Positions 1,751 to 63,889 are shown, counted from the first letter of the stretch. The stretch is DNA of 64,000 bases from Thermoanaerobaculales bacterium (GCA_036351195.1 JAZBOQ010000143.1:29526-93525); one strand, 5' to 3'. Translations and numbers: made by a program. The notes: generated by a model not told the origin, from the sequence alone.

Positions 1751-2557
1751 TCAAGACGATTCCTCCTCGATGGGCGCAGGTTCCCTGCGCACCAATCCTC
1801 CGTGGTTTCGAGACCTTATGGTGTTTCCACCAATTGTGTCAAGACGGTTTTCCATTCTCTGAGCCAGCTCGGCGAGCAGTCGCGCGACAACTTCGTCCAG
1901 AGACGATTCCGATGTATCCACGACAATCGAGCCCCGCGCCACGTGCAGGGGCGAGTCGGAGCGCGTGGAATCCTGCAGGTCGCGCTGGTGCTGTTCTCTG
2001 CGCACATCGTCCACTGTCGCCTCGATCCCCTTGGCGTGGAGATCCGCCTGCCGGCGCCGCGCCCTCTCGGCCGGGCTTGCAGTGAGGAAGACTTTCAAGA
2101 CAGCGTCCGGGAAAACAACGCTGCCGATGTCCCGGCCTTCCATGACGCCGCCGGATTCGAGCCCGATCCGCCGCTGGATCGCGACCAGGGCGCGCCGCAC
2201 CGCCGAAACTGCCGACACCGCCGATGCCATCAGGGCGCACTCCGGGGTCCGAATTACCTCGCTCACATCCTCGCCGTCCAACAGGACATGAAGATCCATT
2301 CCGGTGCCGGAGAGCTCGATGCGGTGGGTTGCCGCCAGTTCGGCGACCGCCGCCGCGTCCTTGTCATCCAGAGGCAGCTCGATGCCGGCACGCGCCGCCA
2401 GGAGACCGACGGCGCGATACATGGCCCCGGTGTCGATGTACGTCAATCCGAGACGCGACGCCAGGAGGCGCGCCACAGTGGATTTTCCCGCACCCGAGGG
2501 ACCGTCGATCGCGATGATCAGAGGTTTGGGGTTCACGGGGTCTGTGGTCGACGACAT
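1751..2557 (-). CDS. cmk: cytidylate kinase
   Basis: ORF 1751..2557. P-loop IAIDGPSGAGKST followed by LTYIDTGAMYRA. Classic cmk-rpsA adjacency, with the TGA stop 2 nt before the rpsA ATG. Confidence 0.9.
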   Translation of the reverse strand: MSSTTDPVNPKPLIIAIDGPSGAGKSTVARLLASRLGLTYIDTGAMYRAVGLLAARAGIELPLDDKDAAAVAELAATHRIELSGTGMDLHVLLDGEDVSEVIRTPECALMASAVSAVSAVRRALVAIQRRIGLESGGVMEGRDIGSVVFPDAVLKVFLTASPAERARRRQADLHAKGIEATVDDVRREQHQRDLQDSTRSDSPLHVARGSIVVDTSESSLDEVVARLLAELAQRMENRLDTIGGNTIRSRNHGGLVRREPAPIEEESS

Positions 2558-2661: not shown

Positions 2662-4245
2662 ATGCCGCATCGGTCCCCGAAGCGACGTGCTCCCGACTAC
2701 CTTCGCGACGAGCGAAGGCTGTTTTCGCTTCCGTCTCACGGCCGCCTGAAGATCGGAGTGGGCTACCCGAACAGTTATTACGTGGCCCACTCTTCCCTCG
2801 CCTACCAGTGGGTTGTCGAGCTGACCGCCCGCACGTCGGAGACCGCAGTGTTCCGATTCTTCACGGATCCCCGGCCCGGTCGAACCCTCGAAAACGACCT
2901 GCCTCTCGGGTCGCTGGACCTTCTGGCGTGGAGCTGCTCCTTCGAGCTGGACGCGGTCCACGTTCTCGAGACGCTCGACGCCGCCGGGATCCCACGTCGG
3001 CGCCACAAGCGGAATGTCCGCCACCCGCTGATCGTCGTCGGGGGCGCCGTGGCCGCCATCAATCCCCTTCCCCTGGCAGCCGCCGTCGACATCTTCGTGG
3101 TCGGCGCCGCGGAACGTCTGTGGCCCGCGCTGCTGGAGTGTGTCCGCGAGATTCCCGACCGGGACGCGCTCCTGACCGAGCTCGCTTCCCGGGACGGCTA
3201 TTTCGTGCCCGGGCGCCACCTGGATGAACGGGGGCGGCCCCTGCGCCGGATCCGCCGGTTGGAAAAACGGGATCGGGAGATGGCGGACGAGGGAATGGTG
3301 CCCAGCTCCCACCTGGTGACCCCCAACACCGAGTACCGCAACCGGGGCCTGGTCGAGATGTCTCGCGGGTGCCCCGAGAAGTGCCGCTACTGCTGGGTGA
3401 GCTACAACTATGGTCGGCTCCGTTGTTACTCGAAAGAGGCGATTCTCCATCGGGTCCGGAGCCTCACCCGGATCACCGACCGAATCGGTTTCGTCGCCAC
3501 CGCTGTGGGCGATCATCCCGACCTGCCCGAGATTCTCTCCGAAAGCCGCCGTCTCGGACTCGACGTCGCGCTCTCGTCCCTGAGGATCCCGGCAATGATC
3601 CCTTCCATCCTTCAGCCTCTCGCCGAGTCCGGTGCCCGTTCGGTGACCATCGCCCCGGAGACCGGGTCCGACAGGCTCCGCCGCAGTCTCGGGAAACCGA
3701 TCGCCAACGACCGAATCCTCGCGGCCGTCGAGCATGCCCAGAGGTGCGGGATCACCGACCTGAAGATGTACTTCATCATCGGCCTTCCCGGTGAAACCGA
3801 CGACGACCTCGAATCCATCGGCGACCTGCTCGAAGCGGCTCGCGGCGTCATGCTCGATCACGCGAGGCGGCGCGGCCGGATGGGCATTCTGCACGCCGGT
3901 TGCAGCGTTCTGGTACCCAAGCCCTACACCCCGTTCTCCCGGGAGGCCTTTCTCCCGCGGCCCGAGTACCGGCGCAGACTCGCGCTGTTGGAGCGCCGGA
4001 TCAGGGGGTTGGACAACGTGAAGTTCGATCGCCCTTCGTACCGCGAAGCGCTGTGGCAGACCGTCCTCAGTCGCGGCGGGGCATCCACCTACGAGCTGCT
4101 GGATCAGCTCGCGGACCACGGCCACCTCGGCCGCCTGCTCACCGAGCACCGCGATGGCGCCGTCGCCGCCGCCGCCGCTGAGGCCGAAGACGCTCCCGTC
4201 TGGCGGTTCATCGCCTCAGCGCCGACTGTCACGAGCTCGGTGTGA
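2662..4245 (+). CDS. radical SAM protein (uncharacterised subfamily with N-terminal B12-binding-like region)
   Basis: ORF 2662..4245. CxxxCxxC cluster motif in MSRGCPEKCRYCWVSYNYG. The N-terminus (RLKIGVGYPNSYYVAHSSLAYQ) resembles uncharacterised rSAM families. Divergent from cmk. Confidence 0.8.
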   Translation: MPHRSPKRRAPDYLRDERRLFSLPSHGRLKIGVGYPNSYYVAHSSLAYQWVVELTARTSETAVFRFFTDPRPGRTLENDLPLGSLDLLAWSCSFELDAVHVLETLDAAGIPRRRHKRNVRHPLIVVGGAVAAINPLPLAAAVDIFVVGAAERLWPALLECVREIPDRDALLTELASRDGYFVPGRHLDERGRPLRRIRRLEKRDREMADEGMVPSSHLVTPNTEYRNRGLVEMSRGCPEKCRYCWVSYNYGRLRCYSKEAILHRVRSLTRITDRIGFVATAVGDHPDLPEILSESRRLGLDVALSSLRIPAMIPSILQPLAESGARSVTIAPETGSDRLRRSLGKPIANDRILAAVEHAQRCGITDLKMYFIIGLPGETDDDLESIGDLLEAARGVMLDHARRRGRMGILHAGCSVLVPKPYTPFSREAFLPRPEYRRRLALLERRIRGLDNVKFDRPSYREALWQTVLSRGGASTYELLDQLADHGHLGRLLTEHRDGAVAAAAAEAEDAPVWRFIASAPTVTSSV

Positions 4246-4257
4246 CGACGGGCGGAC

Positions 4258-5370
4258 CTACTCGAGAGGCCTCGGCTTGCCGGGCCGGCGGAGTCCCCGC
4301 GGCTCGATCAACACCGACACCTTCACCTCGGGGTTGTCGGGGTCATCGGTGGTGAGCACGAGGGTTTCCATGGCCCGGCGTTGGAGGGCTCCGGCCTGAA
4401 CGTCCTCGTCCAGGATCACCGCCACGGTGTGAACCTGCTGATCCACATCACCGTCGATCAACTCGGCCGTGAACAGCTCTGGCTTCGACGGCTCGGCCGC
4501 AGTGATCTTGAACTCGTCCGACCGATTGTGATGGACCCGCATCATCGCGGAACGTGCCGGCTCGTTGCCTTCTTGAAGGATCAAACGCACCTGCGTCGGC
4601 CTCGCTTCGATCACCGGTCGGAGACGCAGGGCATAGCTCACCGCCACATTGGGGACGTCGGGATGGTTGGTCGCGAACCGAAAGCGGCCGTTGATGCCCT
4701 GGGCTTCGAGATCGGGAGCGGTGGCGATGGTCATCAGTATGTCGCCTTCACGGCCCGCGAGCTCGCCCACGGTTCTCGGCGCTTCCAGCTTCTCCGTCGT
4801 CACGAGAATCCGCGGATCATGATGGTTGATACCGGTGATCTCCAGCGGTGCTCCATCTCTCCGGCGCACCAGCAGATAGCGCACGATCTCGTCGCCCTCG
4901 GTGCCGCTGAGGTAGACCTGCGGCCGCGGGAGCACCTCGATGGAGGCCACTGCGGTGAAACGGACGTTGAGGCTCAGCCGCTCGGCTCCCGTCGCATCGG
5001 TGGTCACCGAAATGCTCTTGGAGATTTTTCCGAACTGCGTCACCGAGGTTTTGACCTTCGCTGTGAGCTTTCCCGACCCACCTGCCGGGATGACCGAGTC
5101 GTGCTCGGCCACGGCGCATCCTCAAGACGGTTTGGCGCGGATGATCTTCACATCGACGTCGCCCCGGTTGTGGAAGATGAAGGTCGCCACCGCGTCCGTC
5201 CCCGCCTTGATCTCTCCGAGGTCGATGGTCGGTTCCTCCACGGTCAGCAGCGGCCCCACCTGGGGAGTGTTGCTGGCTCGTCCCTGGTCGCCGCCCTGTG
5301 CACTCATCGGCGCCGCGATCGCAAGCACACCGGCCAGCAGCACCGTCTTCAACGTTTCGCCACCCTTCAT
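4258..5370 (-). CDS. exported DUF1573-domain protein with in-frame TGA (candidate selenocysteine at codon 83)
   Basis: SD GGGAGGAA plus ATG 5370. Signal peptide MKGGETLKTVLLAGVLAIAAPMSA/QG. Reading through TGA 5124..5122 gives ...VKIIRAKPS-U-GCAVAEHDSVIPAGGSGKLTAKV..., the DUF1573 S-C-G-C-x...I-P-G-x-x-G core. Both track ORFs (5122..6414 tail and 4258..5112) are in the same frame. Confidence 0.6.
5090..5112 (-). promoter_or_regulatory. stem-loop 9 nt downstream of the in-frame UGA (SECIS-like position)
   Basis: mRNA sense GUGGCCGAG-CACGA-CUCGGUCAU forms 9 bp (including 2 G-U) with a 5-nt loop. The loop starts 18 nt after the UGA. Confidence 0.4.
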
Positions 5371-5435
5371 GGGTTCCTCCCGTTTATCGCGGACGCCGGA
5401 TTGTACCCCTTCCCGGGCCGGTCTTTGCCGGTTCT

Positions 5436-6212
5436 TTACACCAGATCGAGCTCCTGCTTGACGCCCCCATCGGTGGCGATGACCGTGCACCGCACGGGCA
5501 GCGAGCGCGAAGCCTGCTCCACCGCCTGCCTGACCAGGCGAACGAGTCCGCCGCAGCAGGGCACCTCCATCACCATGACGTGGATCGACCGGATCCCCGT
5601 CTGATCGATCATGGTGACGAGCTTGTCGAGATAGACCTGCTGGTTGGAATCGAGCTTCGGGCACGCGATGGCAAGGGAGTGGCCCGCCAGAAAGCGGCGG
5701 TGAAATCCCGCAGCCGCGAACGGCACACAGTCCGCCGCCAACAAGAGATCGGAGTCGGTCAGGAAGGGCGCCGTGGGCGGCACGAGGTGGAGCTGAACCG
5801 GCCAGTGCCGCAGCTGCGACGCCTCCCCACCGACAGCTTCTCTCCCCTCGGGCGCCGGCGGATCGAAGCTCCGGGTCGCGGAACCGGGGCAGCCACCCGC
5901 GGGTCCGGTGGTGATCGGGCTGATCAGGTCGAGAGAAGGGAGTGCGCCTTTCGGCGCCGGCGCCCGGCCGATCTTCTCGAGATGGGCGGCCACGGCATCC
6001 TCGTCGAAACCGTCCGCGTCTCGTTCGATGATGGTGATGGCGCCGGTGTGGCAGTCGCCGAGACAGGCCCCCAAACCGTCGCAATACGAGTCCTTCACGA
6101 GGGTCGCCTTGCCGTCGACGAGCTGAATCGCCCCTTCCGCGCACGCCGACACGCAGTCCCCGCACCCGTCGCAGAGTTCCTGGTCGATTTCGATGATCTG
6201 GCGAACAGCCAT
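5436..6212 (-). CDS. 4Fe-4S dicluster-type ferredoxin domain protein with Cys-rich C-terminal domain
   Basis: SD GGAGG plus ATG 6212 (MAVRQIIEID...). Motifs CDGCGDCVSAC and CDGLGACLGDC, then AADCVPF, IACPKLD and EVPCCGGL. Ends 65 nt upstream of the DUF1573 gene on the same strand. Confidence 0.75.
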   Translation of the reverse strand: MAVRQIIEIDQELCDGCGDCVSACAEGAIQLVDGKATLVKDSYCDGLGACLGDCHTGAITIIERDADGFDEDAVAAHLEKIGRAPAPKGALPSLDLISPITTGPAGGCPGSATRSFDPPAPEGREAVGGEASQLRHWPVQLHLVPPTAPFLTDSDLLLAADCVPFAAAGFHRRFLAGHSLAIACPKLDSNQQVYLDKLVTMIDQTGIRSIHVMVMEVPCCGGLVRLVRQAVEQASRSLPVRCTVIATDGGVKQELDLV

Positions 6213-6243
6213 GGTTGCCTCCGTCGTCCTCTTCCCGTTCAAT

Positions 6244-6287
6244 ATCGATTGATGACGATGGATATTCCTTGATATGGGTCAATCGAT
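6244..6287. promoter_or_regulatory. inverted repeat ATCGATTGA-N26-TCAATCGAT upstream of the Fe-S protein gene (possible operator)
   Basis: Perfect 9-bp arms at 6244-6252 and 6279-6287 in an AT-richer stretch, 32-75 nt upstream of ATG 6212. Confidence 0.25.
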
Positions 6288-6341
6288 TCACGCAATCTGC
6301 CGATGGGGTTGAATGTTTTCGAAACCAGCGAGCTGCTCCAT

Positions 6342-6518
6342 GAGGCACAATCGAACCGCGGAGGTGCTGAGATCGCAGAGTCTCCGCCGAGTCCTTTCTG
6401 ATCCATCGAATCATCCGATCGCGCGGTCTCCCTCCTGAATCGAAGGAGTCGGGGGGCAGAAAAACGATGCTCGGCGAATCTCAGCGTTCTTCGTGTCTCT
6501 GCGGTTCGTTTGTGCATC
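6342..6518. repeat. ~177-nt imperfect palindromic intergenic element (REP/MITE-like)
   Basis: Paired blocks 6342-6363/6497-6518 (19 of 22), 6366-6373/6478-6485 (8 of 8) and 6385-6391/6470-6476 (7 of 7). Central small hairpin CTCCT-GAATCGA-AGGAG. The right arm carries the core CTCTGCGGTTCGTTTGTGCATC. Confidence 0.55.
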
Positions 6519-6534
6519 CGCGTTCTTGTGCTGG

Positions 6535-7809
6535 TTACGATGTATCGCGCACACGAGGCCAGACCGGCGCTTCGGACATCACCGCGACGCGGTCCCGTGC
6601 GCCCTTGCTCCGCCAGCGGTCGGCGATCTCGTCGAGATCGATCACCGGGATGAACCCAAGGCGCTCGGCGATCTCGGGATCCAGCGCCGATTTCAGGTGG
6701 ACGCGGTATCGCGCGGTCTTTTCGACGATCCTCAGCGTCGTGTGGCCGTATTGAACATACCGTCGAGCCAGGCGATCGAGGATGGCCTCCGGACGAGGAT
6801 CAGCGAGAAACGGTTCCATGACCGACGACCCAACGCCGTCACCGAGCTTCGCAACGAACAGGACTTCCGCGCCCGGATTGGCGAATCGACAGATCGCGTC
6901 AAGTCTCTTGTGCGCCTGAATCAGCGTCGAGTCTCCCGGCCTTCCCCCACCACAACCCACCAGGTGGTCGAAGCCCGCTCCCACGACCCCGTACCACTCC
7001 ACGACCTTCTCCACCGCCGCGGCGAACGCCGTTCGCCACGGGCCACCAGACGCCCAGGCGATGCCGCCCAGCCGCCCGGGAACCAGGCAGACGGCAAAAT
7101 GCGGTGGATTGAGATCTGCGGCGCGCGAGATCTCCTCCGCCACCGGGTTTCCCTCGAGAACCCCCGGCTCGCAACTGGGATGGCGCTCGACGCCCTGGGC
7201 TCCCTGACGAAACACCAACGCGTGGTTGGCCTGAATCTCGTCGTAACCGGCGATGCCGGGGAAGATCATCTTCGGGCCGCCGCCGAATCCGGCGAAGTAG
7301 TGATGCATGACGCCACCGACAGTGACCAGAAGATCCGCCGCGGCGGCCTCGGCGTCGATGCGCAGCGCACGCCCCGGTCGAAGCTCCCCGACGGTGACCA
7401 GATGGTCATCCGAGCGACTGTCGTGCTGACGGACGGTGACTCCCAGCGGCACCTTCCCCACCAACTCGGCAATCTCGGACTTTACGACCTGGGGGTGGGT
7501 TCCGCACGCCACCAGGATGGTGATGGCGTCGGCCGGGACCGCCGCCGCCAGCAGTCGATTGACGATCACCGGCAGGACCTCGGGCAGGCACACCCGCCGG
7601 GTCGCGTCCGGAACCACGATGACCGCCGACCGCCGCTCTCTGGCCAGTTCGCTGAGATTCGGGCCTTCGACGGGGTAGTCCACCGCCCGCGAGAGCAGGC
7701 GGCCGAGATCGCCGACGCCGCGCGGCGCCGACGGCTGCAGTGGCCGGACTCGCAGTCCGCGCAGGTCCACCGCAACGTCATCCCGTCCATAGTCGAGCTT
7801 GACAATCAT
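6535..7809 (-). CDS. LarA-like (DUF2088, nickel-dependent lactate racemase family) protein
   Basis: Start ATG 7809 (MIVKLDYGRDDVAVDL...) inside track ORF 6535..8286. Motifs VACGTHPQ and HHYFAGFGGGPKMIFPG. ATGA overlap with the upstream AMMECR1 gene. Confidence 0.75.
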   Translation of the reverse strand: MIVKLDYGRDDVAVDLRGLRVRPLQPSAPRGVGDLGRLLSRAVDYPVEGPNLSELARERRSAVIVVPDATRRVCLPEVLPVIVNRLLAAAVPADAITILVACGTHPQVVKSEIAELVGKVPLGVTVRQHDSRSDDHLVTVGELRPGRALRIDAEAAAADLLVTVGGVMHHYFAGFGGGPKMIFPGIAGYDEIQANHALVFRQGAQGVERHPSCEPGVLEGNPVAEEISRAADLNPPHFAVCLVPGRLGGIAWASGGPWRTAFAAAVEKVVEWYGVVGAGFDHLVGCGGGRPGDSTLIQAHKRLDAICRFANPGAEVLFVAKLGDGVGSSVMEPFLADPRPEAILDRLARRYVQYGHTTLRIVEKTARYRVHLKSALDPEIAERLGFIPVIDLDEIADRWRSKGARDRVAVMSEAPVWPRVRDTS

Positions 7810-8381
7810 CGAAAATCCTCCTCGGAGAAGACCTCCGCCTGGAAGGCCGAGATCCTCGCAGCCGGATTTCGCCAGCACCCGGGCTGCATCCCGGCCTTGC
7901 GACAGGTTTGGTCGAGGAACTCCTCCGGGCTCCAATCGTATCGCTCGCCGACCTGGGGCAAGAGCAATCCGCGGAGGTGGCCCCGTTCGACGATGAGCCC
8001 GTCCCGTCCGACCCGGATCTCCTCGACGTTCGAGATCGTCCGCAGCGGAGACAGGGCCGAGATCTCGATGGTCAGCGAACTGAGCTCGGCGGAGGCCAGC
8101 GGCGGAAAACGGGGATCCTTGAAGGCTGCATTGATTGCGTTGCTCCGAACCGAAGACCACAACGACTCGGAGCCCACCACGTGCCCGATGCATCCGCGAA
8201 GCCGGTCGCCGTCCATCAGCGTGACGAACGCCCCTCTTTCTTGCCTCAGTGGTCCGTCGGCGGGCTCCTCGAGCTCGACGAGACACCCGTCGAGCGCACC
8301 GCGGATCACCGTGCGGGCGAGATCGAGGAGCAACCGACGCTCTCCCGCATCCAACGGCCTCGTCCAGCTCTCAGCCATCAC
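7806..8381 (-). CDS. AMMECR1 domain protein
   Basis: ORF 7806..8381. GAFVTL...LRGCIG...PRFPPL...LLLPQV pattern typical of AMMECR1. Confidence 0.8.
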   Translation of the reverse strand: MMAESWTRPLDAGERRLLLDLARTVIRGALDGCLVELEEPADGPLRQERGAFVTLMDGDRLRGCIGHVVGSESLWSSVRSNAINAAFKDPRFPPLASAELSSLTIEISALSPLRTISNVEEIRVGRDGLIVERGHLRGLLLPQVGERYDWSPEEFLDQTCRKAGMQPGCWRNPAARISAFQAEVFSEEDFR

Positions 8382-8455
8382 GATCCTCCGAACCCATTAC
8401 CGTAAGAGCGGCTCGTTGTGGTGTGCCGAACCGCATGGGTTTAGTATAGGCCCCC

Positions 8456-9377: not shown

Positions 9378-10631
9378 CTACCGGCGGGCGACCTCGGAGC
9401 GGAGGCGCTCGGCGAGACGCAGCAGTCGCGGGTCGGTGGGAAACCGTTGCAGGGCGTCCGACAGAATCACGGTGGCACCCATGAAGTCGCCGCGTCGCAA
9501 TTGATACTCCGCCAGCGCCGCCCGCATCGACGGGTTCTCCGGCGCCACCTGCACCGCACGCTCGAGAGCGAGCTTCGCGTCCTCCCAGGCGCCGGCACGT
9601 TCGGCCGTTCGCGCCACTGCCTGCAACAGATTGACATCGGTGGGGTTCATCCCCCACGCCCGGCGAAGGTGATGCAGCGCTGCCGCCGAGTCTCCTCTTC
9701 GTTCGGCCAGGGAGGCGAGCACTCGGTACGGTCCGATGGAACGGGGATCGTACCCGAGGGCGGTCTCCGCCGCGGCCACCGCTCCTTCGGGATCACCCTG
9801 CCCGTCCCTCGCCATGGCGATCACCGCCCAGGCGTCCGCAAGGACCGCCGAGGTCAACGCCGTACGGGAAACCAGTGCGTCCAATCGCGCTTCCCCGGCG
9901 GCGAAAAATCCGGAGCTCATGTCCCACCTCGCCAGCTCCAGCACCACTCTGGGGTCGCGGGCCTCGCTCTCGAGCAACTCTCTGCCCTCGTCATTGAGAT
10001 CCCGTTGCCGCAGCGCCCGGGCCAAACTGATCGCGCTCCGGCTTCGTGCGCGCGGATAGAAGACCATTCGTCTCCGCAGGCCCTCCATCACGACCATGTC
10101 GGACTCCTCCGGTGTGAGCTCAACCCGGCGTCTCCAGCTCCCGTTCCCCAGCGCCGCCGCCGTCGCGAGGCTGTCCAGCGCGTCCTCGTTTCGGCCTCCC
10201 GCGCGCGCGGCCATTCCGGCCAGACGGTGAAGCTCGGGCGCCGTCGGATCGCGAACGATGGCGGCGTTCAACGAGACCCAGGCCGCCTCCATTTCCCCTG
10301 TGATGAGCTCCCCTCGAGCACGGTTCACGAATCCGTGGGGGTCCGCCGGGCTCCACCGCAGCTGCAGATCCCCGACCGCACGGAGAGCGGCCACCATCGT
10401 TTCTCGCGGTGCGCCGGCCAGCAGCGAGACCGGCAGTCTGCGGGCTCGCCGCGCGACTGGGGGAAATCTCAAAACCCGATTGTTCACCAGGGAATTTGAA
10501 CCCTCGGTGGCCGAGTCGCGCAGACGATCGACCGCTCCGTTCCAACTCCACCACGCGGTCAGGCCGATCACTTCCACAAGAAGCGCCACCGCTGCGGCCA
10601 ACACCAACCAACGGATCGACGGCGCCTTCAC
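9378..10631 (-). CDS. TPR-repeat protein with N-terminal membrane anchor
   Basis: GTG 10631 overlaps the murB stop (GTGA). N-terminal TM IRWLVLAAAVALLVEVIGLTAWW, followed by Ala/Leu/Arg-rich TPR-like helices. Confidence 0.65.
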   Translation of the reverse strand: MKAPSIRWLVLAAAVALLVEVIGLTAWWSWNGAVDRLRDSATEGSNSLVNNRVLRFPPVARRARRLPVSLLAGAPRETMVAALRAVGDLQLRWSPADPHGFVNRARGELITGEMEAAWVSLNAAIVRDPTAPELHRLAGMAARAGGRNEDALDSLATAAALGNGSWRRRVELTPEESDMVVMEGLRRRMVFYPRARSRSAISLARALRQRDLNDEGRELLESEARDPRVVLELARWDMSSGFFAAGEARLDALVSRTALTSAVLADAWAVIAMARDGQGDPEGAVAAAETALGYDPRSIGPYRVLASLAERRGDSAAALHHLRRAWGMNPTDVNLLQAVARTAERAGAWEDAKLALERAVQVAPENPSMRAALAEYQLRRGDFMGATVILSDALQRFPTDPRLLRLAERLRSEVARR

Positions 10632-11668
10632 AGGGACACCGCCCGGCCGTCCTCGTCGAGGAAGACGAGAGCGGGAACCAGCTCGATGCCGGTAGCCGAA
10701 GCAACCCTGTCGCGGGCGCGGCGACACAGCTCGAGAACGTCCGAGGCGGTTGCCGATCTGCCGGCGAGCAGTTCGTTGCCCCGGGCGCCGCCGAACCGCA
10801 CACCGCCTAGCGCGGTTCCCGCATAACCCACCTCGTCGAGGAGATCCGCCGCCGTCGCATCATCGGCGTCGAGGAACACCGGCCCCATCCTTCGCAGTGG
10901 GCGGGAGAGACCGCCGAAGGCTCCGGTGGTCCTGATCTCACCCGCCCCCGGCCCCTTCAGCGCGAACCGTATCCTCGACACGACCCGCCGATGCATCTCG
11001 CTCGCCTCCGGAACGGTCTGAGACGGCGACCTGGTCCAACGGATGACAGGCGCGCCCGGCCCCTGCAGCTCGACCCAATCGAGCGCCACCCCGGCATCGA
11101 GGACCTGGTGAGCCGCACCGTGTACGAACCCACCGATACTGTGGTGCCGCCCGTCGAGATCTTCGATTCCCGAGAGGCCGGCTCTGCCCGCCGCGCGGCA
11201 CACCTGTGCCAAGTTGGCACCCGCACCCGCCACTATTCCGTCCGACTCGGCTTTCCATCGGGCAAGCTCGCCGGTCAAGCTGACCACCGGCACGCGAAAG
11301 CCGCGATCCGGCGCCACCAACCGTGAACCACCGCCGAGGACCACCCAACCCAGGCCGTGGGACGCAGCCAGGTCGATGACTTCACGGACTCCGTTCTCAC
11401 TGTGACAACGGGCAACCAGAGCCGCGATCCCGCCAACGCCGAGGGTCGTCCACGCGCGCAAATCCACCCGTTCGTGAATCTCCACGTGCGCTGTTCTGCG
11501 GAGCTCTCGAAGCGCCCCTTCCAGATTTTCGAGATCGCCGACCAGCAAAATTTCGCCCCGTTCCGAAAGTTGGCACGAGCCTTGCTTTAACAGAGGACAG
11601 CCGGGCACACAACGACCTGGTAACGCATCATACCTCCTCCTTCCTCCTGCGGGCCGCAAGGTCCGCAT
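10628..11668 (-). CDS. murB: UDP-N-acetylenolpyruvoylglucosamine reductase (5' end uncertain)
   Basis: ORF 10628..11668. DLRAWTTLGVGGIA and GLGWVVLGGGSRLV FAD-binding motifs. The conserved region begins about 70 codons into the ORF, so a downstream start (TTG near 11551) is possible. Confidence 0.8.
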   Translation of the reverse strand: MRTLRPAGGRRRYDALPGRCVPGCPLLKQGSCQLSERGEILLVGDLENLEGALRELRRTAHVEIHERVDLRAWTTLGVGGIAALVARCHSENGVREVIDLAASHGLGWVVLGGGSRLVAPDRGFRVPVVSLTGELARWKAESDGIVAGAGANLAQVCRAAGRAGLSGIEDLDGRHHSIGGFVHGAAHQVLDAGVALDWVELQGPGAPVIRWTRSPSQTVPEASEMHRRVVSRIRFALKGPGAGEIRTTGAFGGLSRPLRRMGPVFLDADDATAADLLDEVGYAGTALGGVRFGGARGNELLAGRSATASDVLELCRRARDRVASATGIELVPALVFLDEDGRAVSL

Positions 11669-11753: not shown

Positions 11754-14700
11754 TCAGAGGTCTTTGAGCCCGAGCTTCCTGATCTGGTAGAGCAATCCCT
11801 GCCGCGATATTCCGAGCTCGCGGGCTGCGGCGCTCCGGTTTCCGTGGTGCCGGGCCAGGACCTCGGTGAGGAGTGTTCGCTTGAAGTCTGCCAGGGCGGA
11901 CTCCCACGAGCCTCGCACGGGGCGGTCCGCTTCGGGAATCGGAAGGTCGGCGGGCCGAATCTGCCGTCCCCCCGACCGCGCCATGGCGACCTCGACGGTG
12001 TGCTTGAGTTCCCGCACGTTTCCCGGCCACGAGTGACTCATGAGCATCTCTTCCGCCCGCCGGGACCATGTCGGAACGGGCAGCCCGTAACGCCGAGCCG
12101 CCTCGCGCTCGAAGATCGACCGCAGCACGGGAATGTCCAGCCTCCGCTCCCTCAGGGGCGGCACCTCAATCGTCGCCACCGCCATCCGGTAGTACAGGTC
12201 CTCACGGAATCGCGCCTGTCGCACCCGCCGCTTGAGATTCCGATGGGTGGCGCAGACAACCCGCGTGTCCACCTCCCGGACCTGATCCGATCCCACCGCC
12301 CGAACCTCTCCGGCCTCCATGAAGCGCAGCAATTTCACCTGCAGGGTCGCGTCCAGATCTCCGACCTCATCCAGGAAGAGGGTTCCTCCGTCGGCCGCCG
12401 CCACCAATCCTCTCCGGTGCCGATCGGCGCCGGTAAACGCCCCCTTGACGGCTCCGAAGAGCTCGGACTCCAGGAGGTTGCCAGGAATCGCTGCGACGTT
12501 GACGCAGACCAGATCGCCGGTTCGCCCGGAGAGGCGGTGGATTTCCCGCGCGACGATCTCCTTGCCGGAACCGGTCTCTCCGTGGATCAGCAGATTGAAG
12601 CTCGGGCCCGCCACCCGGAGAATCTCGCTCCTGAGACGTTCCGCGGCCGGCGAACCGCCGTCAATTCTCACCACTTCTTCCGAAGGCTCGGAAATCTCGA
12701 CTCCCTGGGTGGGCGCCAACAGGCTCAGAACATCGAGGAAGAGGTCCCAGGCCGGGCCAGGCAGTGGTTCGAAGCCCAGCGGGATCACCTCGAAGCCGCC
12801 TCGGCTCATGCCCCCGACGGGCCGCCCTTCACCGATGGCCAGGAGATCCCGGCCGCGGGCCGCCTCTCTCACCACGAGGCCGGTGACTCCGAGGGCTTCG
12901 AGCAGCCCCCCGGGGACCTGTTTCTGCAGGGTCCCCAGTCTCTGGCCGCGGATCACCTCCGACAGCGCCCGGTGAAACCCGTCCGCCTCTTCCGGGCCCC
13001 ACCGCATCCGCGACGCCCAACCGTCGATTCCGCAGTCGGACAGCACCCGCGCAGCCCGTTGACGGAGCCTGGAGGGCGGCCAACCCGGCCGGACGGCAAG
13101 CTCGCGGCACAACGCCACTGCCATGCCGTCCTTGAGGTCCAGCGGCCGTTCATCCCACGCCACCGCCCGGCTGTGCCGCAGCTCGACGGCCAGGGCAGCC
13201 GCCCGGCGGACTCCCCAACCGTCCTCTCCGCTCATGCCCGAAGGAATCTCGCCGACCAGCTCAAGCCATGCCTTTCCTTCCTCACCTCCTCGAGCCAGGA
13301 GAGACGTCGCGTCGGCTGTGCAGCCGTCGAACAGAGCTTCGACTCCCCGCAGCAGAAAAATCGCCTGGGCAATCTGTTCGTCGGCGCCGTCTTCCACCGC
13401 CGGAAGCTCTCCGAGACGTCGACGAAAGTCTTCCAAGTGCCCGGCCGCCAAAGCCAGCCGCACTCGCTCCACCTCTTCGAAGATCGAGGTCTCTAGCGCG
13501 CCCAAGCGGTCGAGACGCCGGGCGGCGCGTCTGAGGCGGAGCTGGTCGATGTCGGCCACCGCGAGGTTGTGCAGAGCAACCCATTCGCGGTGACGAAAAC
13601 CGGCCACCTGGAAGAGGCGATAAGCCCCGAGAGTCAACCGCTCAGAAACCGCAGGCCGCCCGAGTTCGCCTTCCACCAGCCCGAGGTTGACCTGCATCGA
13701 CGCCATTCGACCGGGAGCGCCCTCCCGGTCAATCAAGCGGCGCAGCAGTCGTCTCGCGAGAAGGTACTGACGATCCAGGATCGCTCGTGATGCGCGCTCG
13801 AAGAGCAGCAGGCCCTCGAGCTCGGGATGGCCGTCGGCAACCTCCTTTCGCCATTGACGGTCGTTCAGCCGCTCCGGTTTCATCCGCGCGGCGAATCGAA
13901 TGTCGATCCATCTTCGGGAAGGGCCGTGCAGTCGCTCCATGGCCTCGGTAATCACCACCACGGAGCGGCCCGCAGCTTCTGCGGACCGACCGACGCTCCT
14001 TCTCAGCGCAACCAGTGCGATCTCGGCACAGGCGCGCGGGGCGTGGCGCACGTCGATCGGTTGCGGGAGGGGAACCTCGCCCTGGGGCGTGCGATCCAGC
14101 AGTCGAAGCCAGTCGCGCCACGGGCCGGCGATCTCCCGGTCCATCCCTTTCAGGGCTCTGCGGGCGCCGGCAGCATCGGCCAGGCTCAGACACGCCTCGG
14201 CGTGGGCCGCCTGGACGCCGGATCCCAGCGCTCCCGCCTCGACCTCCTGCAGCAGGTCGCGAACCGCCGCCGCATCGAGATCGTCGAGCCGACTCCGCGC
14301 CCAGGTGAGAACCTCACCGGCGTTGCCCACCGCCAGACCACGGTGAAGCATGCCCTGCGGGGAGTCGGTCGGGAAGACTGCGGCAACCTCGGAGTGCAGG
14401 GGATCGACCTTCATCGAGGCTGCTTCGGGCAACATCAGCCGCCCGTCTCTGACCAGGACCGACTGCCCTTCGACGGCTGCGGCAAGCTCTTTGTCGGATG
14501 CCCCCGCCAGCTCCCTGCCGAGATCTTCCGGAATGCCCTCCGGAGCCAGACTCGCGACCCGGACCAACCGGGTGAAACGTTGTGTGGGTCGAGTCTTTTG
14601 GGCCTCGAAAAGCCGTCTTGCCGATTCCGTCAAACGACCGCGGTCAGCCGAGGACAAGGGGTCGAAACGTCCCTTCAACTCGTCGATGATGCGCTGTCGT

Positions 14701-15566
14701 CGCACCGGCCGAACGCCGACGATGCCGAGATGTGCCGCAAGACGCCCTGGATTGAAGAGCCGAAACGGGCGTGCGTTCCAACCACCCGGAAACGCCCCCA
14801 GCCCAACCGTCGCCACCGTCCCCGTCCCGCTCCGATCCACCAAAGAGGCAGCGCTCTCCGCGTCGAAGGACCCGGCGGCGACACGCACCCGGTCCGACCC
14901 CTCCGCCGCGGCCACCGTTACAGCCTCGGCGCCGTCGGTGGTCATCTCCAGGGTCGCTCCCCGGCCGGCGCGAGCCGCTGCGGCCCACAGCGAGGCTCCG
15001 AGTCTGCGCGCCAACCCCAGGTCGGCCACGTCCACCAACCGGGCATCCCCCGGGTCCGGCAAGGGCGGCGCCGACCACCGCCACATCCACAACGACCGAG
15101 CCGTCGCAATATCCAGGGGCGCTTCCAACCTTTCCAGAAGCTGGGCCAGGGCGCCGTCGAGAAAAAAGCCGGGCTCGAGGCCTCGGCGGCCGCCTGCCGC
15201 GGGCTCCACGCCGGTCACCTCGACGACGGCCTCGATCACCGCTCCCCGGGTCGCCCGAGCCGCTTCCTCGCCTCCCCCGAGCCGCGACCAGACCGCCGGG
15301 AGGGAGACCGGGAGGGCCGGAAGCCTGAGCACGAAACCGTCGCCCGTGGCCACGACCGATGCCGATGCGAGAGCCCGCCGGCCGGGCCAGAGCTCGGCAT
15401 CGCCCAGCAGGGAGCTCACCGCGACCATCTGGACTGCGATCCGACGCCGCTGCTCCGGGTCCAAATCGGCGACGGAAACCGCCTCGGCGCCGGGCTCACA
15501 GCCCTCGAAGGGCTGCGGCAAGGCCGGATGTTCAATCAGGAGCGACCGCGGAAGGGGCGGTCTCAC
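11754..15566 (-). CDS. sigma-54-dependent transcriptional activator with ~900-aa N-terminal region of unknown function
   Basis: C-terminal AAA+ region (LLIHGETGSGKE, GAFTGA, LFLDEVGDL, HSWPGNVRELKH) and Fis-type HTH (AAARELGISRQGLLYQIRKLGL). Start placed at GTG 15566, overlapping the aroA stop (GTGA), because the track ORF (to 15845) overlaps aroA. Confidence 0.8.
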   Translation of the reverse strand: MRPPLPRSLLIEHPALPQPFEGCEPGAEAVSVADLDPEQRRRIAVQMVAVSSLLGDAELWPGRRALASASVVATGDGFVLRLPALPVSLPAVWSRLGGGEEAARATRGAVIEAVVEVTGVEPAAGGRRGLEPGFFLDGALAQLLERLEAPLDIATARSLWMWRWSAPPLPDPGDARLVDVADLGLARRLGASLWAAAARAGRGATLEMTTDGAEAVTVAAAEGSDRVRVAAGSFDAESAASLVDRSGTGTVATVGLGAFPGGWNARPFRLFNPGRLAAHLGIVGVRPVRRQRIIDELKGRFDPLSSADRGRLTESARRLFEAQKTRPTQRFTRLVRVASLAPEGIPEDLGRELAGASDKELAAAVEGQSVLVRDGRLMLPEAASMKVDPLHSEVAAVFPTDSPQGMLHRGLAVGNAGEVLTWARSRLDDLDAAAVRDLLQEVEAGALGSGVQAAHAEACLSLADAAGARRALKGMDREIAGPWRDWLRLLDRTPQGEVPLPQPIDVRHAPRACAEIALVALRRSVGRSAEAAGRSVVVITEAMERLHGPSRRWIDIRFAARMKPERLNDRQWRKEVADGHPELEGLLLFERASRAILDRQYLLARRLLRRLIDREGAPGRMASMQVNLGLVEGELGRPAVSERLTLGAYRLFQVAGFRHREWVALHNLAVADIDQLRLRRAARRLDRLGALETSIFEEVERVRLALAAGHLEDFRRRLGELPAVEDGADEQIAQAIFLLRGVEALFDGCTADATSLLARGGEEGKAWLELVGEIPSGMSGEDGWGVRRAAALAVELRHSRAVAWDERPLDLKDGMAVALCRELAVRPGWPPSRLRQRAARVLSDCGIDGWASRMRWGPEEADGFHRALSEVIRGQRLGTLQKQVPGGLLEALGVTGLVVREAARGRDLLAIGEGRPVGGMSRGGFEVIPLGFEPLPGPAWDLFLDVLSLLAPTQGVEISEPSEEVVRIDGGSPAAERLRSEILRVAGPSFNLLIHGETGSGKEIVAREIHRLSGRTGDLVCVNVAAIPGNLLESELFGAVKGAFTGADRHRRGLVAAADGGTLFLDEVGDLDATLQVKLLRFMEAGEVRAVGSDQVREVDTRVVCATHRNLKRRVRQARFREDLYYRMAVATIEVPPLRERRLDIPVLRSIFEREAARRYGLPVPTWSRRAEEMLMSHSWPGNVRELKHTVEVAMARSGGRQIRPADLPIPEADRPVRGSWESALADFKRTLLTEVLARHHGNRSAAARELGISRQGLLYQIRKLGLKDL

Positions 15567-16834
15567 CGCAGCTCGCCCGAGCCGTCCAGGAGACCCTTCC
15601 ACATGCTCCAGAAGCCGGGGAAGGACTTTCCAACACAATCCGCGTCGTCGAGCTCGAGGCCGCCGGTCGCCAGACCGGCCACCGCCATGGCCATGGCGAT
15701 TCGATGATCCGCTGCCGCCGTCACGGCGACCCGCCGCTTCCGATGCCGGTCCATCGGTCGCACCACTCGGATCTCCCCTTGTTCGCGCTCGATACCAGCT
15801 CCAAGGCGACCGAGGTTCGACAGCATCACCGCCAGCCGATCGCACTCCTTGTGCCGAAGATGGTCGAGCCCGCGAAGCACGGTCCCCGGTGGCCCCGCCG
15901 CGGCCACCACCGCCAATGCCGGAAAGGCGTCAGGAGCGTCCTCGAGACTGGCGTCGAAGGGCCGGTCGGCGGGTCCCCGCACGTCCACGGTTTCGCCAAC
16001 GAAATCGATCGCCACCCCTGCCCGCCGGAGAATCCCGCAGATCGCGCGGTCACCCTGGGCGCTTTCGCCATCCAGGGGTCTGATGCCGACGCGGCCGCCG
16101 GCCACCGCGGCCGCCGCCGCCGGAAAGGCCATGGCGGACCAGTCTCCTTCCACCGCAAAGCTGGTCGGACGGATGCCTCCCGGCTCCACCCGCCATCGAT
16201 TCTCCAAGGCTTCGACGGTTGCGCCGAAGGCGGTCAGAGTCTGCTCGGTCAGATCCAGGTACGGACGCGACGGTACCGTGCCGAGCACCTCGAGATCGAG
16301 GCCGCGGGTCATGAGCGGCGCCGCAAGGAGGAGCGACGAGACGAACTGGGACGAAACTTCGGGCGTGATCCGAAGTTTGCCGCCGGCCAGGCGCCCGCCC
16401 TTCAGCGTCACCGGAAGCCTGCCGTCCCGACTCTCGATGGTCGAACCGAGCTCTCCCAACGCCTCGATGAGCGGCGCCATGGGCCGCTCCCGTAGCCGCG
16501 GGGTTCCGTCCACCGTGAACGACCCCGGCACACAGGCCAACAGGCCGAGAATGAGACGCGAACCGGTCCCCGAGTTGCCGAGGTCGACCCGAATCCGGGA
16601 CACCGTTTCCCGCGGACCGATCCGGATCGAGCTCCCCCACTCCACCGGCCATCCGGCCTGGCGCAGCGCATCGGCGAGGAGCCGAGTGTCTTCACAGTCC
16701 AGCGGCCGCAGGACTTCTCCGCCGTCGGCTGCCGCCGCGGCGATCAGGGCGCGGTTGGTGAGGCTCTTGGACGTCGGAACCCGAACATCAGCGTCGAGGT
16801 TGCCAACCGGGCCGGGAAGAAGGACGGAGTTCAT
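15563..16834 (-). CDS. aroA: 3-phosphoshikimate 1-carboxyvinyltransferase (EPSP synthase)
   Basis: ORF 15563..16834. VPTSKSLTNRALIAAA, LGNSGTGSRL and DHRIAMAMAVAG motifs. Confidence 0.9.
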   Translation of the reverse strand: MNSVLLPGPVGNLDADVRVPTSKSLTNRALIAAAAADGGEVLRPLDCEDTRLLADALRQAGWPVEWGSSIRIGPRETVSRIRVDLGNSGTGSRLILGLLACVPGSFTVDGTPRLRERPMAPLIEALGELGSTIESRDGRLPVTLKGGRLAGGKLRITPEVSSQFVSSLLLAAPLMTRGLDLEVLGTVPSRPYLDLTEQTLTAFGATVEALENRWRVEPGGIRPTSFAVEGDWSAMAFPAAAAAVAGGRVGIRPLDGESAQGDRAICGILRRAGVAIDFVGETVDVRGPADRPFDASLEDAPDAFPALAVVAAAGPPGTVLRGLDHLRHKECDRLAVMLSNLGRLGAGIEREQGEIRVVRPMDRHRKRRVAVTAAADHRIAMAMAVAGLATGGLELDDADCVGKSFPGFWSMWKGLLDGSGELR

Positions 16835-16889
16835 CCCGAACTCCGACCTGTCGAAGACGGCGCGTTCCGCTGGTGTCGAACTCTGGAGT

Positions 16890-17645
16890 TCACCCGCCCA
16901 TTTTGAGAAGGGGTCCGCAGGGTGTCAAGTTATTCTCCACCATCATCGCTCCCGCTTCATCATCCAACATGGCCGCTCGTCGGGAGTCCAACCATGCCGG
17001 GAGAATGATGGCCACCTTGTCATCGTGGTGGTACGACCACGACGCGTGAAAGTGTCCCCAGAGGACGACATCCACGCCCATTTCCCACGCATTCTCGGCG
17101 TCGCGTCGGAGGCACGACAGAGGCTTGCGGTAGCGGAACTTCTTGTTGGTCTCGGCGAGCCGCGCTTCCATGGTCTGTACGATCCATACGGCCAACGGCC
17201 TCGGCAGCAGCCGGGCCCACACCCGCGCCGGCATCGACTTGGACAACCACGACCAGAAGCGATACTGGACATCTCTCAGGTTCACCTTGTCTCCATGGAC
17301 CAGCCGGTACCGTCGTCCCGCCGACTCGAACTCGAGCTCGGTGCCCGCCCAGTCGATCTCCGCCGCGAGCTCCGGAGCGTCGAGGAAGAAGTCGCGATTC
17401 CCCTCGATCACGGCAATCCGAACGCCGGACTCCCGCAGGCGGCGCCAGCAATCGAGGACCCCCAGAAACCCCGACGTCCAGAACTTGGACATCCCGATGA
17501 GATACTGAAATCCATCTCCCAGGTAGATGATGTCCGTCACACCCGTTCTGCCCGCCGCACGTAACATGGAACACATGTCAGCCGCATCGCCGGTTCGTTG
17601 GCCGACGTGGGCATCAGCAATGATCAGTCGCTTCACAACGGTCAT
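16890..17645 (-). CDS. LpxH-like metallophosphoesterase (UDP-2,3-diacylglucosamine hydrolase family)
   Basis: ORF 16890..17645. IADAHVG, YLGDGFQY, EGNRDFF, LVHGD and WGHFH metallophosphoesterase motifs. Confidence 0.7.
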   Translation of the reverse strand: MTVVKRLIIADAHVGQRTGDAADMCSMLRAAGRTGVTDIIYLGDGFQYLIGMSKFWTSGFLGVLDCWRRLRESGVRIAVIEGNRDFFLDAPELAAEIDWAGTELEFESAGRRYRLVHGDKVNLRDVQYRFWSWLSKSMPARVWARLLPRPLAVWIVQTMEARLAETNKKFRYRKPLSCLRRDAENAWEMGVDVVLWGHFHASWSYHHDDKVAIILPAWLDSRRAAMLDDEAGAMMVENNLTPCGPLLKMGG

Positions 17646-47058: not shown

Positions 47059-48654
47059 TCACTCAACCTCTTCCGGGACCGCCTCGTCGAAGCCGAGGAT
47101 CGACCGGATGGCTATCGCAGCATCATCGGCGACGGCGTCGAGGTCGCCGGCGGGGCCCTTGACGGTCGGCACGATGAGGATCTCGTCGGCCTCGATGTCC
47201 TGGATGCGGGCATCGAGACGGACGGTCCCCTCGTCGGTGAAGACCGCATAGGAGCCGAGGACCACGAAGTCGGCGTCCAGTCGTTCGCGCAACCTGGAGA
47301 GGTCCTCCGGCCCGAGGGTGGTCAGGCGGTCGATCTTGAGCTCCGAACGAACCCGCCGGACATCCTCCAGAGACCCCACGGTCAGCACCCCCGGGACCAC
47401 CAAACGGTCGCCGATCAACCGGCACAGGTCGTCCGAGACCCCGGCAGCCGCCGGATTGCCGGTGAGGTTCTCGAAACCGAGGACCGACACCGCCGCCGCG
47501 ACGTCGGCGACGGCGGATTCTACCGGCGCTCTCGCTTCGTGCTGCTGTGGTGCGGGGACGACGGGTCTCCGGTCCAGCACGCCCGCGATCTTCAGCCCGG
47601 CCAGGGACACCGCAGCCAGCAGCATTCCCGCCGCCACCACGTAACCCATTCGCCGTCTGTTCGCGGGGTTGACGGCACGACCGAGAGCTCTCTCGTCCGA
47701 GAGGGCGACGGCGATCTCCTCCACCCGCTCGAAGCGGTCCGCGGGATCGGTCTCGAGGCAGCGCAGCACGACGTCGTCCCAGTGGGCGGGTACACCGCGC
47801 ACCAGCGAGCTCGGGCCGGAGGGCTTTTCGCGCATCTTGTTCAGAGCCATCTGAAAGGCGCTGGATCCCTCGAAGGGCCGCGCCCCGGTGAGCAGTTCGT
47901 AGATCACGAGACCGAGGGCATAGATGTCCGACGCGGTGGTGGCCTCCAGACCCTCCATCTGCTCGGGCGCCATGTACGCGGGAGTTCCCAGCAGCTCTCC
48001 GGTACGGGTCACGGTGAGGTCTTCGTCCCCCAGCGACTCGCGCCTGGCGAGGCCGAAGTCCGCGATCACCACCCGATCGCCATGCTCCTCGGGAACCAGG
48101 AAGATGTTGGAAGGCTTGAGATCGCGGTGGATGATCCCCTGCCCGTGAGCCGCGGACAGGCCGTCGCAGAGCTGCCTGACCACCTCCATCGCGTCGCCCG
48201 GGCTCAGGCCGCCGTCGGCGAGCCGGGCGCGCAGCGACACTCCTTGCAGCAGCTCCATGGTGAGGAAGACCACATCATCGCCATCGCCGGTGGGGTGGCG
48301 GCCGAGATCGAAGATCCGGCACACATTGCGATGGCTCACCCGGCGGGCAATCTGAATCTCGCGCCGGAATCGGTCCAAAGTGGTGGGGTCGTTCAGCGCC
48401 TTGGGCAGGATGGTCTTCAACGCCACCGACTCACCGAGCTCGCGGTCGTGCACCCGGTAAACCTCTCCCATGCCGCCACGTGCAAGGAAACCCTCCACCT
48501 CATATCGCTGGGCGATGAGATCGCCCGGGTTGAATGCTGGTCCGAGGTCGAGATCGGGGTCGATGACTTCGCCGCGGCCCGCAGGAACCTCGGTCAGGGA
48601 AATGTCCCCACCCCCTCCGGGCTTAGCCCGCCGGCCGCTCGTCTCGTCAGCCAC
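47059..48654 (-). CDS. Ser/Thr protein kinase with TM and extracytoplasmic C-terminal domain
   Basis: Kinase motifs [30 protein letters not shown] and APE. A single TM ([17 protein letters not shown]) is followed by [13 protein letters not shown]..., a TolB-N/LpoB-like pattern. GTG 48654 overlaps the upstream stop by 8 nt. Confidence 0.85.
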
Positions 48655-54554: not shown

Positions 54555-54635
54555 ACCCAAGTATCGCCCCGTTCCGCCGGTTTTGCACAACGCCGTCGGT
54601 GGAGTCGGCACCCGATAATCAGTTAGAGTGAGGTC

Positions 54636-63691: not shown

Positions 63692-63889
63692 CACGTCTCC
63701 TTCCGGAGAAACAATATCGCTGAACAGTGAAATACTCAAGTCATCCACTCGCCCTTAAATTGCGTACTGATCTCAATTTACAAGCGCCTCCTTGTCAAAA
63801 CCGCCGCTTCGCCCGAGCTGTCTAAAAGGACCTTTTTCTGAATTGAACGCGGTGGTAAAGTAGCGCTTTACGAGAAAGAAACGGACACC

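Follow-up and report, generated by a model that had tools for sequence, protein, structure and literature searches.

A conserved in-frame UGA, very likely read as selenocysteine, in a probably exported DUF1573 protein of Thermoanaerobaculales and its acidobacterial relatives

In a stretch of 64,000 nucleotides from a Thermoanaerobaculales bacterium (GCA_036351195.1, JAZBOQ010000143.1:29526-93525; hereafter the window, meaning the whole stretch), a gene on the minus strand at 4258..5370 is interrupted by a single in-frame TGA, and we consider it very likely that this TGA is a selenocysteine codon in an exported protein with a DUF1573 domain. The TGA stands in the column where Cys-containing relatives carry the first Cys of a C-G-C motif, it recurs at this codon in every one of the 44 related loci with sequence across the site, and it is followed by two adjacent hairpins, together ~42 nt, that are both under strong RNA-level selection. 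The core of the sequence-only reading of this DNA, namely a local recoding of UGA at the first Cys of a CGC pair in an exported protein with a hairpin downstream, is thus supported by the conservation of the TGA, by covariation and synonymous constraint in the RNA, and by conserved signal peptides. That reading was not aware of DUF1573 as an established selenoprotein family, and the novelty so implied was mistaken; a selenoprotein family with this domain, OS_HP2, was described in 2007 and has its own NCBIfam model, NF041425.

In the model that we favour, 4258..5370 (-) would be one gene for an exported protein of 370 residues, built from three tandem immunoglobulin-like (Ig-like) beta-sandwich domains. 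The UGA at 5124..5122 would be decoded as selenocysteine to give the motif P-S-U-G-C in the first, DUF1573-type domain, and the recoding would be directed by the conserved mRNA structure just 3' of it, where one hairpin lies at the canonical distance of a bacterial selenocysteine insertion sequence (SECIS) and a second hairpin abuts the first. An N-terminal signal peptide would then direct the chain, still unfolded, to the cell envelope by way of the Sec translocon.

Gene structure and conservation of the in-frame TGA

The gene is a single reading frame of 371 codons, from ATG 5370..5368 to TAG 4260..4258, with TGA 5124..5122 as its sole internal stop, so that the product has 370 residues when the selenocysteine at position 83 is counted. 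Re-reading the frame and the junction gave the same picture as had been proposed earlier, of minus-strand open reading frames (ORFs) in one frame separated only by this TGA: the peptide reads ...IIRAKPS, then the stop, then GCAVAEHDSVIPAGGSGKLTAKVKT (in a shorter form, ...IIRAKPS, the stop, and GCAVAEHDSVIPAGGSGK). The upstream part does carry the Shine-Dalgarno sequence, the ATG at 5370 and the predicted signal peptide that had been ascribed to it, and the downstream ORF taken alone has, as also claimed, a possible GTG start at 5112 that lies in mid-domain and has no signal peptide behind it. The features of the gene and its product, all on the minus strand, are as follows.

4258..5370 (-): complete candidate selenoprotein gene, one frame with a single internal TGA, ending in TAG 4260..4258
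5374..5381 (-): Shine-Dalgarno sequence GGGAGGAA, read from 5381 to 5374, 3 bases 5' of the ATG; GGAGG-type motifs precede the start in most orthologues
5299..5370 (-): putative signal peptide of the Sec type, MKGGETLKTVLLAGVLAIAAPMSA, recognizable in the sequence itself, with its putative cleavage site before QG
5122..5124 (-): UGA very likely read as selenocysteine, residue 83; first Cys of P-S-C-G-C in relatives, TGA in 44/44 loci
5116..5118 (-): TGC for Cys85, an invariant Cys (codon TGC in 42/43 sequences) and the putative resolving partner in U-G-C
4969..5247 (-): DUF1573/OS_HP2-type Ig-like domain with the U-G-C motif, residues 42-134, from matches to PF07610 and NF041425
4261..4968 (-): two further predicted beta-sandwich (Ig-like) domains with no Pfam match, conserved in all orthologues and placed by the model of the homologue P0047

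When the stop was replaced by Cys, residues 42-134 of the read-through product matched the Pfam family DUF1573 (PF07610) with E=5.2e-15 and 55.7 bits, which passes the threshold of 26.1. Since this match spans the stop, the TGA falls inside a domain. Relatives of the protein were drawn from a collection of 5.8 billion proteins, and in an alignment with the 11 Cys-containing relatives among them (P0047-P0057) the TGA lines up with the first Cys of P-[ST]-C-G-C, which is the position that the sequence-only reading had assigned to it. In the same collection, ~46 close relatives are called as proteins of 278-311 aa that cover the post-TGA part only, and >80 as fragments of ~61-107 aa (mostly 70-80) that cover the pre-TGA part only. 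The occurrence of such split fragments in many independent assemblies implies that the gene callers stop at the same conserved UGA.

At the DNA level, two related loci (L001 and L002) were fetched individually and 43 more came from a scan that took one genome per species, one locus being cut by the end of its contig. The TGA lies at the same codon in 44/44 of the loci that cover the site, and the flanking peptide stays in frame and conserved before and after it, at 31-60% protein identity to the window protein, so that the expectation of TGA-carrying orthologues was amply borne out. The motif P-S-U-G-C is present in the window protein and in all orthologues. The carriers are metagenome-assembled genomes (MAGs) labelled Thermoanaerobaculia, Thermoanaerobaculales, Candidatus Sulfomarinibacteraceae or simply Acidobacteriota, with a few bearing other labels.

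Among those few are L009, L027 and L008/L033/L038, from MAGs labelled Methylomirabilota, Deltaproteobacteria and Holophagae, where the same gene stands in synteny of the Thermoanaerobaculia type; this suggests mislabelled or contaminated bins. Two other loci show local anomalies: in L043 the peptide 5' of the TGA goes out of frame at ~9970..10104, and L044 has unrelated sequence where the first domain should end. Both are probably frameshift errors in MAG assemblies and not real decay of the gene.

As had been pointed out, TGA is otherwise an ordinary stop in the window. The genes cmk (1751..2557), murB (10628..11668) and aroA (15563..16924) each terminate in TGA, as do 31/40 of the coding-like ORFs listed for the window, where it is the commonest stop codon. 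There is therefore no change of genetic code, and a genome-wide reassignment of TGA was rejected on this ground. Elsewhere in the window, the TGA at 47059..47061 (-) that ends a Ser/Thr kinase gene is followed by an open frame of 522 codons in the same phase; it was considered as a second recoding site and rejected, as the downstream translation is not protein-like and the codon is an ordinary stop.

RNA structure 3' of the UGA

An alignment of 72 nt around the TGA from 44 sequences was folded with RNAalifold, and the consensus consists of two adjacent hairpins.

5091..5111 (-): hairpin 1, candidate SECIS upper stem-loop, 8 bp with core 5093..5109 and loop YWYGA, found in minimum-free-energy folds and in the RNAalifold consensus
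5071..5090 (-): hairpin 2, 5-7 bp with loop AGGUGG, which contains GGU; directly abuts hairpin 1, found in the RNAalifold consensus

Hairpin 1 has a core of 6 bp (5093..5109), in which every pair is invariant or covarying and which can be extended to 8-9 bp, and it is closed by a loop of 5 nt; the stem lies 12 nt and the loop 18 nt past the UGA. In the window, GUGGCCGAG-CACGA-CUCGGUCAU (5112..5090) folds with -12.6 kcal/mol (z = -3.67), and 0/200 shuffled sequences were as stable. This is the hairpin that the sequence-only reading had picked out, and it does fold as described and is conserved, but it is only the first of two conserved hairpins, the second having gone unnoticed. Hairpin 2 folds with -10.9 kcal/mol (z = -2.88) and was present in every single-sequence fold tried, and in the single-sequence folds of four divergent orthologues both hairpins appear.

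Over the whole alignment, standard pairs occupy 96% of the cells, a share that falls to 24-54% once the partners are shifted by 1-3 columns, and none of 500 shuffles reached the observed covariation score. Two pairs of hairpin 1 account for the covariation. At pair 26-34, 40 sequences have A:U and 3 have G:C (L025, L028 and L029, the carriers of the compensatory change), and the switch changes Glu to Gly and Ser to Pro; since two amino acids are altered for the sake of one base pair, it can be argued that the pairing itself is selected. Pair 21-39, which joins two Val third positions, is G:C in 18 sequences, C:G in 11, U:G in 1 and unpaired in 13. In hairpin 2, whose stem is almost invariant, no covariation was seen, and its two inner pairs are broken in 7/43 and 3/43 sequences.

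Of all the signs of constraint, the one at synonymous positions is the strongest. For conserved residues with four- or six-fold degenerate codons, codon entropy averages 0.38 bits over codons +5 to +17 past the UGA, compared with 1.63 bits elsewhere (Mann-Whitney p = 4e-6). Within hairpin 2, codons that are rare in the rest of the gene are fixed: GGT in 41/43 sequences (17% usage elsewhere), GCA in 35/43 (10%) and GGA in 39/43 (18%). The control was a pair of Cys homologues whose codon at the site is TGC; they can form just 3/8 and 2/8 of the pairs of hairpin 1. The IPAGGSG codons of one Cys homologue are enough for 6/7 of the pairs equivalent to those of hairpin 2, which means that part of this pairing comes free with the peptide.

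Immediately 5' of the UGA (5125..5127 in the window), the Ser codon is TCT in 26/38 of the sequences from L001-L044, compared with 7% usage elsewhere, and this preference may reflect selection on the base 5' of a recoded stop. At a permissive Rfam threshold the hairpin region gave a snoRNA match only, which was rejected as due to chance.

Selenocysteine and the rival explanations

Several observations weigh against a selenocysteine codon. No tRNA was found in the 64-kb window by ARAGORN or Rfam, and no SelA, SelB or SelD domain among its proteins by Pfam on ~47 ORFs; in the 45 related loci (~20 kb per genome) ARAGORN found no tRNA-Sec, and tblastn with E. coli SelD and SelB queries gave no match in 812 kb of these loci. 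As the regions searched are a tiny part of each genome, this absence of selenocysteine machinery is uninformative. In the literature found, selenium incorporation is not reported for any member of the DUF1573/OS_HP2 family. With respect to the RNA, the covariation is limited to two pairs, and the sequences are related, so that the shuffle control overstates its significance. The region of 57-71 nt as a whole gains little in stability over shuffled sequences (z = -0.55 to -2.0), and there was no Rfam SECIS match in the window at gathering score, nor in 5030..5150 at E <= 10. Lastly, the loop of hairpin 1, YWYGA at 18 nt, has no G in its first two positions, while the published consensus of bacterial SECIS elements has a G in the first two positions of the apical loop, 16-37 nt from the UGA.

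By this loop rule neither hairpin is a textbook SECIS: hairpin 1 is at the right distance and has no leading G, and hairpin 2 has a G-G-U loop at the edge of the allowed distance, its G-rich loop lying 36-38 nt past the UGA depending on the number of pairs counted. The SECIS of E. coli fdhF, whose upper stem begins 11 nt and whose GGUC loop begins 18 nt past the UGA, makes a useful comparison. As in fdhF, there is in the window gene a stem-loop within the coding sequence just after the UGA, with nearly the same spacing; unlike fdhF, the loop at that distance is YWYGA and not GGUC, a second and equally conserved hairpin carries the GGU, and the element has no match to Rfam SECIS models.

The same selenoprotein could therefore be read with a different element, in which hairpin 2 (5071..5090) is the SECIS bound by SelB and hairpin 1 a spacer or helper, or in which the two act as a bipartite pair. 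We regard this as possible, though clearly the less likely arrangement. Hairpin 2 is conserved equally to hairpin 1, is held in place by the fixed rare codons GCA, GGT and GGA, and appears both in the consensus and in every single-sequence fold tried; its G-G-U is the loop motif of the fdhF SECIS, and with 5 bp counted in its stem the first loop base is a G at 36 nt, inside the range of 16-37 nt. Nevertheless, hairpin 2 has no compensatory change, its pairs being invariant or occasionally broken, and a Cys homologue makes most of the equivalent pairs from its IPAGGSG codons, whereas both the classical spacing and the covariation belong to hairpin 1. It could further be envisioned that the two hairpins form a SECIS specific to this acidobacterial lineage, either as a bipartite element recognized by SelB or with hairpin 2 in a separate role such as ribosome pausing or the regulation of selenocysteine insertion, which we hold to be rather unlikely. 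Either hairpin may be the one that SelB binds.

The UGA might instead be decoded by a suppressor tRNA as Cys or another residue, through a SelC*-like tRNA-Cys(UCA) or an acidobacterial allo-tRNA. Acidobacteria have been reported to contain tRNAs with 8/4 or 9/3 acceptor branches that are able to act as nonsense suppressors (PMC5389517), and because of these we keep a small probability for a residue other than selenocysteine. In addition, SelC*, a tRNA-Cys that mimics tRNA-Sec, is reported in other anaerobes, and no selenocysteine machinery was found in the window or in the ~20-kb related loci. However, the groups in which SelC* was reported are Firmicutes, Thermodesulfobacteria, Nitrospirae and Proteobacteria, not Acidobacteria (PMC5389517), and a general UGA suppressor would clash with the use of TGA as the main stop in the window. 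Selenocysteine is what would be expected from a conserved hairpin at SECIS distance and from a family whose listed motif has U at precisely this residue, and some Acidobacteria are on record as selenocysteine decoders (PMC1794560). We therefore think decoding as Cys or another residue highly improbable. A literature search on selenocysteine in Thermoanaerobaculia, Sulfomarinibacter and Thermoanaerobaculum gave nothing useful.

That the TGA is a true stop, marking a pair of genes, a pseudogene in decay or a mistake of sequencing or assembly, is what the public calls of two ORFs (P0108, 82 aa, and P0001, 284 aa) and the possible GTG start would suggest, but such a stop would cut one beta-sandwich domain in two and leave the downstream piece without a signal peptide, and the idea is effectively refuted by the TGA in 44/44 loci, as a stop kept in one frame across independent assemblies of 31-60% identity, with both flanks under purifying selection, rules out all three of its forms.

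The OS_HP2 family, the protein and its genomic setting

The preferred reading, selenocysteine at residue 83, places the window protein in a known if poorly studied family. OS_HP2 was defined in 2007 from symbionts of Olavius algarvensis (Zhang & Gladyshev; PMC1976440), and the 2008 Global Ocean Sampling (GOS) analysis by the same authors equated it with pfam07610, with the motif UxC, 2 selenocysteine forms and 354 Cys homologues (PMC2398784). Reviews of 2022 and 2026 list 'DUF1573 ... UGC' (PMC9312934, PMC13188914). The best NCBIfam match of the window protein is NF041425, 'OS_HP2 family (seleno)protein', at 71.9 bits, which is below the cut-off of 100 bits. The same model is the best NCBIfam match for 30/30 orthologue domains tested, at 68-75 bits (best E 2.7e-22) and again always below the cut-off, while the Cys homologue P0047 passes it with 106.8 bits.

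The window protein and OS_HP2 have in common the Pfam domain and the place of selenocysteine at the first Cys of C-G-C, and P0047, a Cys form above the cut-off, has the same three-domain architecture with a signal peptide. They differ in that the window protein and the 30 orthologues tested fall below the curated cut-off and are only ~29% identical to P0047; in that they form a separate clade, mostly of Thermoanaerobaculia, with selenocysteine in every member seen; and in that OS_HP2 was first recognized in sequences of deltaproteobacterial worm symbionts and of ocean samples. The window protein thus stands for a whole clade of divergent members of the known OS_HP2/DUF1573 selenoprotein family, a sister clade of OS_HP2 with the same architecture and selenocysteine position. 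Its novelty is modest, that of a mis-annotated branch of a known family, and it opens no new kind of system.

The cut-off has a practical consequence. NCBI records the 82-aa fragment (P0108) as 'hypothetical protein V2I67_11010 [Thermoanaerobaculales bacterium]' and lists separately a 284-aa 'DUF1573 domain-containing protein' (P0001). The gene is split in this way because the NF041425 cut-off does not reach the clade, and a gene present in all 44 Acidobacteriota loci that cover the site stands cut in two in public records. A lower cut-off for NF041425, or a model specific to the clade, would fix dozens of records. The clade extends a poorly studied and purely computational selenoprotein family to another phylum, and it provides a clean alignment of 44 acidobacterial sequences of the putative SECIS that is usable for studies of SelB. 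Moreover, the fact that selenocysteine is fixed in every member seen argues for a functionally important U-G-C centre in the cell envelope.

The proteins are likely to be exported through the Sec pathway, since the N-termini of the orthologues share a basic start, a hydrophobic core (mean Kyte-Doolittle 2-3.7 over 10 aa) and a cleavage region of small residues. No lipobox was found among these N-termini. The AlphaFold model of P0047, a Cys homologue of 340 residues with 29% identity and the same layout, has a pLDDT (predicted local distance difference test) score of 93.3 and consists of three tandem beta-sandwiches, with the C-G-C where two strands of the first domain meet in a tight turn. Foldseek comparison of this model with the PDB returned tandem Ig-like/ASH proteins only, namely ciliary central-apparatus proteins, adhesins and cadherins, and gave no catalytic or enzyme clue; sequence comparison with solved structures gave no significant match, and a literature search on DUF1573 function found no functional study.

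As to what the motif may do, selenocysteine almost always replaces a catalytic redox Cys, and rings closed between the two residues of a C-x-C are strained and reactive. On these two grounds the most likely proposal is that the Sec-Gly-Cys pair would cycle between selenol/thiol and selenenylsulfide as a redox-active centre in the cell envelope, the main alternative being the binding of a metal or metalloid by the selenol/thiol pair. Comparable redox centres are the Cys-Gly-Cys shuttle of Erv2, the CGC mimic of protein disulfide isomerase and the Gly-Cys-Sec-Gly tail of mammalian thioredoxin reductase, where likewise two chalcogen residues stand 0-1 positions apart and where, as may be the case here, a strained and reactive (selenenyl)sulfide ring can form. 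The window protein differs from these in its predicted Ig-like beta-sandwich fold and in having no partner reductase or oxidase in its neighbourhood, and its chemistry is proposed by analogy. Predicted exported selenoproteins similar to DsbA and DsbG have been described in marine metagenomes (PMC2398784); they too are selenocysteine proteins with a signal peptide, presumably of the envelope, but theirs is a thioredoxin fold with UxxC, in contrast to the Ig-like fold with UxC of the window protein.

The gene is found in two conserved neighbourhoods, neither of which suggests a redox partner. In the first type (~30 loci) the order is Lar_N, Fer4/AF_0155, the selenoprotein gene, radical SAM, cmk and rpsA, and in the second (~10 loci) a TPR gene, the selenoprotein gene, an AAA ATPase and a sigma-54 activator. 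In the window, the flanking genes at 5436..8396 (-) and 2662..4245 (+) form a block, conserved in ~30 related genomes, with AMMECR1, Lar_N (lactate-racemase N-terminal), 4Fe-4S/AF_0155 and, on the opposite strand, radical SAM, followed by cmk and rpsA; no functional link of the conserved AMMECR1, Lar_N, 4Fe-4S/AF_0155 and radical SAM genes to the selenoprotein was established. In L018, L019, L022, L025, L028, L029 and L034-L037 the selenoprotein gene stands between a gene for a TPR protein and those for an AAA ATPase, a 229-aa unknown protein and an FHA-sigma-54 activator; all three carriers of the compensatory change in hairpin 1 belong to this group.

Three further ORFs of the window deserve mention. 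The one at 60545..63754 (-), of 1069 residues, combines many c-type haem motifs (cytochrome c7/c3, paired CXXCH, MtrC/MtrF-like domain) with a membrane domain of the cytochrome b561 type, and from these motifs its product is possibly an extracellular electron-transfer protein. At 54627..59360 (+), an AMP-binding (acyl-adenylate-forming) enzyme is fused to a C-terminal GNAT acetyltransferase domain in a product of 1577 residues. The window is 66% GC and shadow ORFs are common in it; the long, coding-looking ORF at 13791..15707 (+), which has no Pfam match, was rejected as a shadow of the real gene at 11754..15845 (-), which encodes a sigma-54 activator of 1363 residues.

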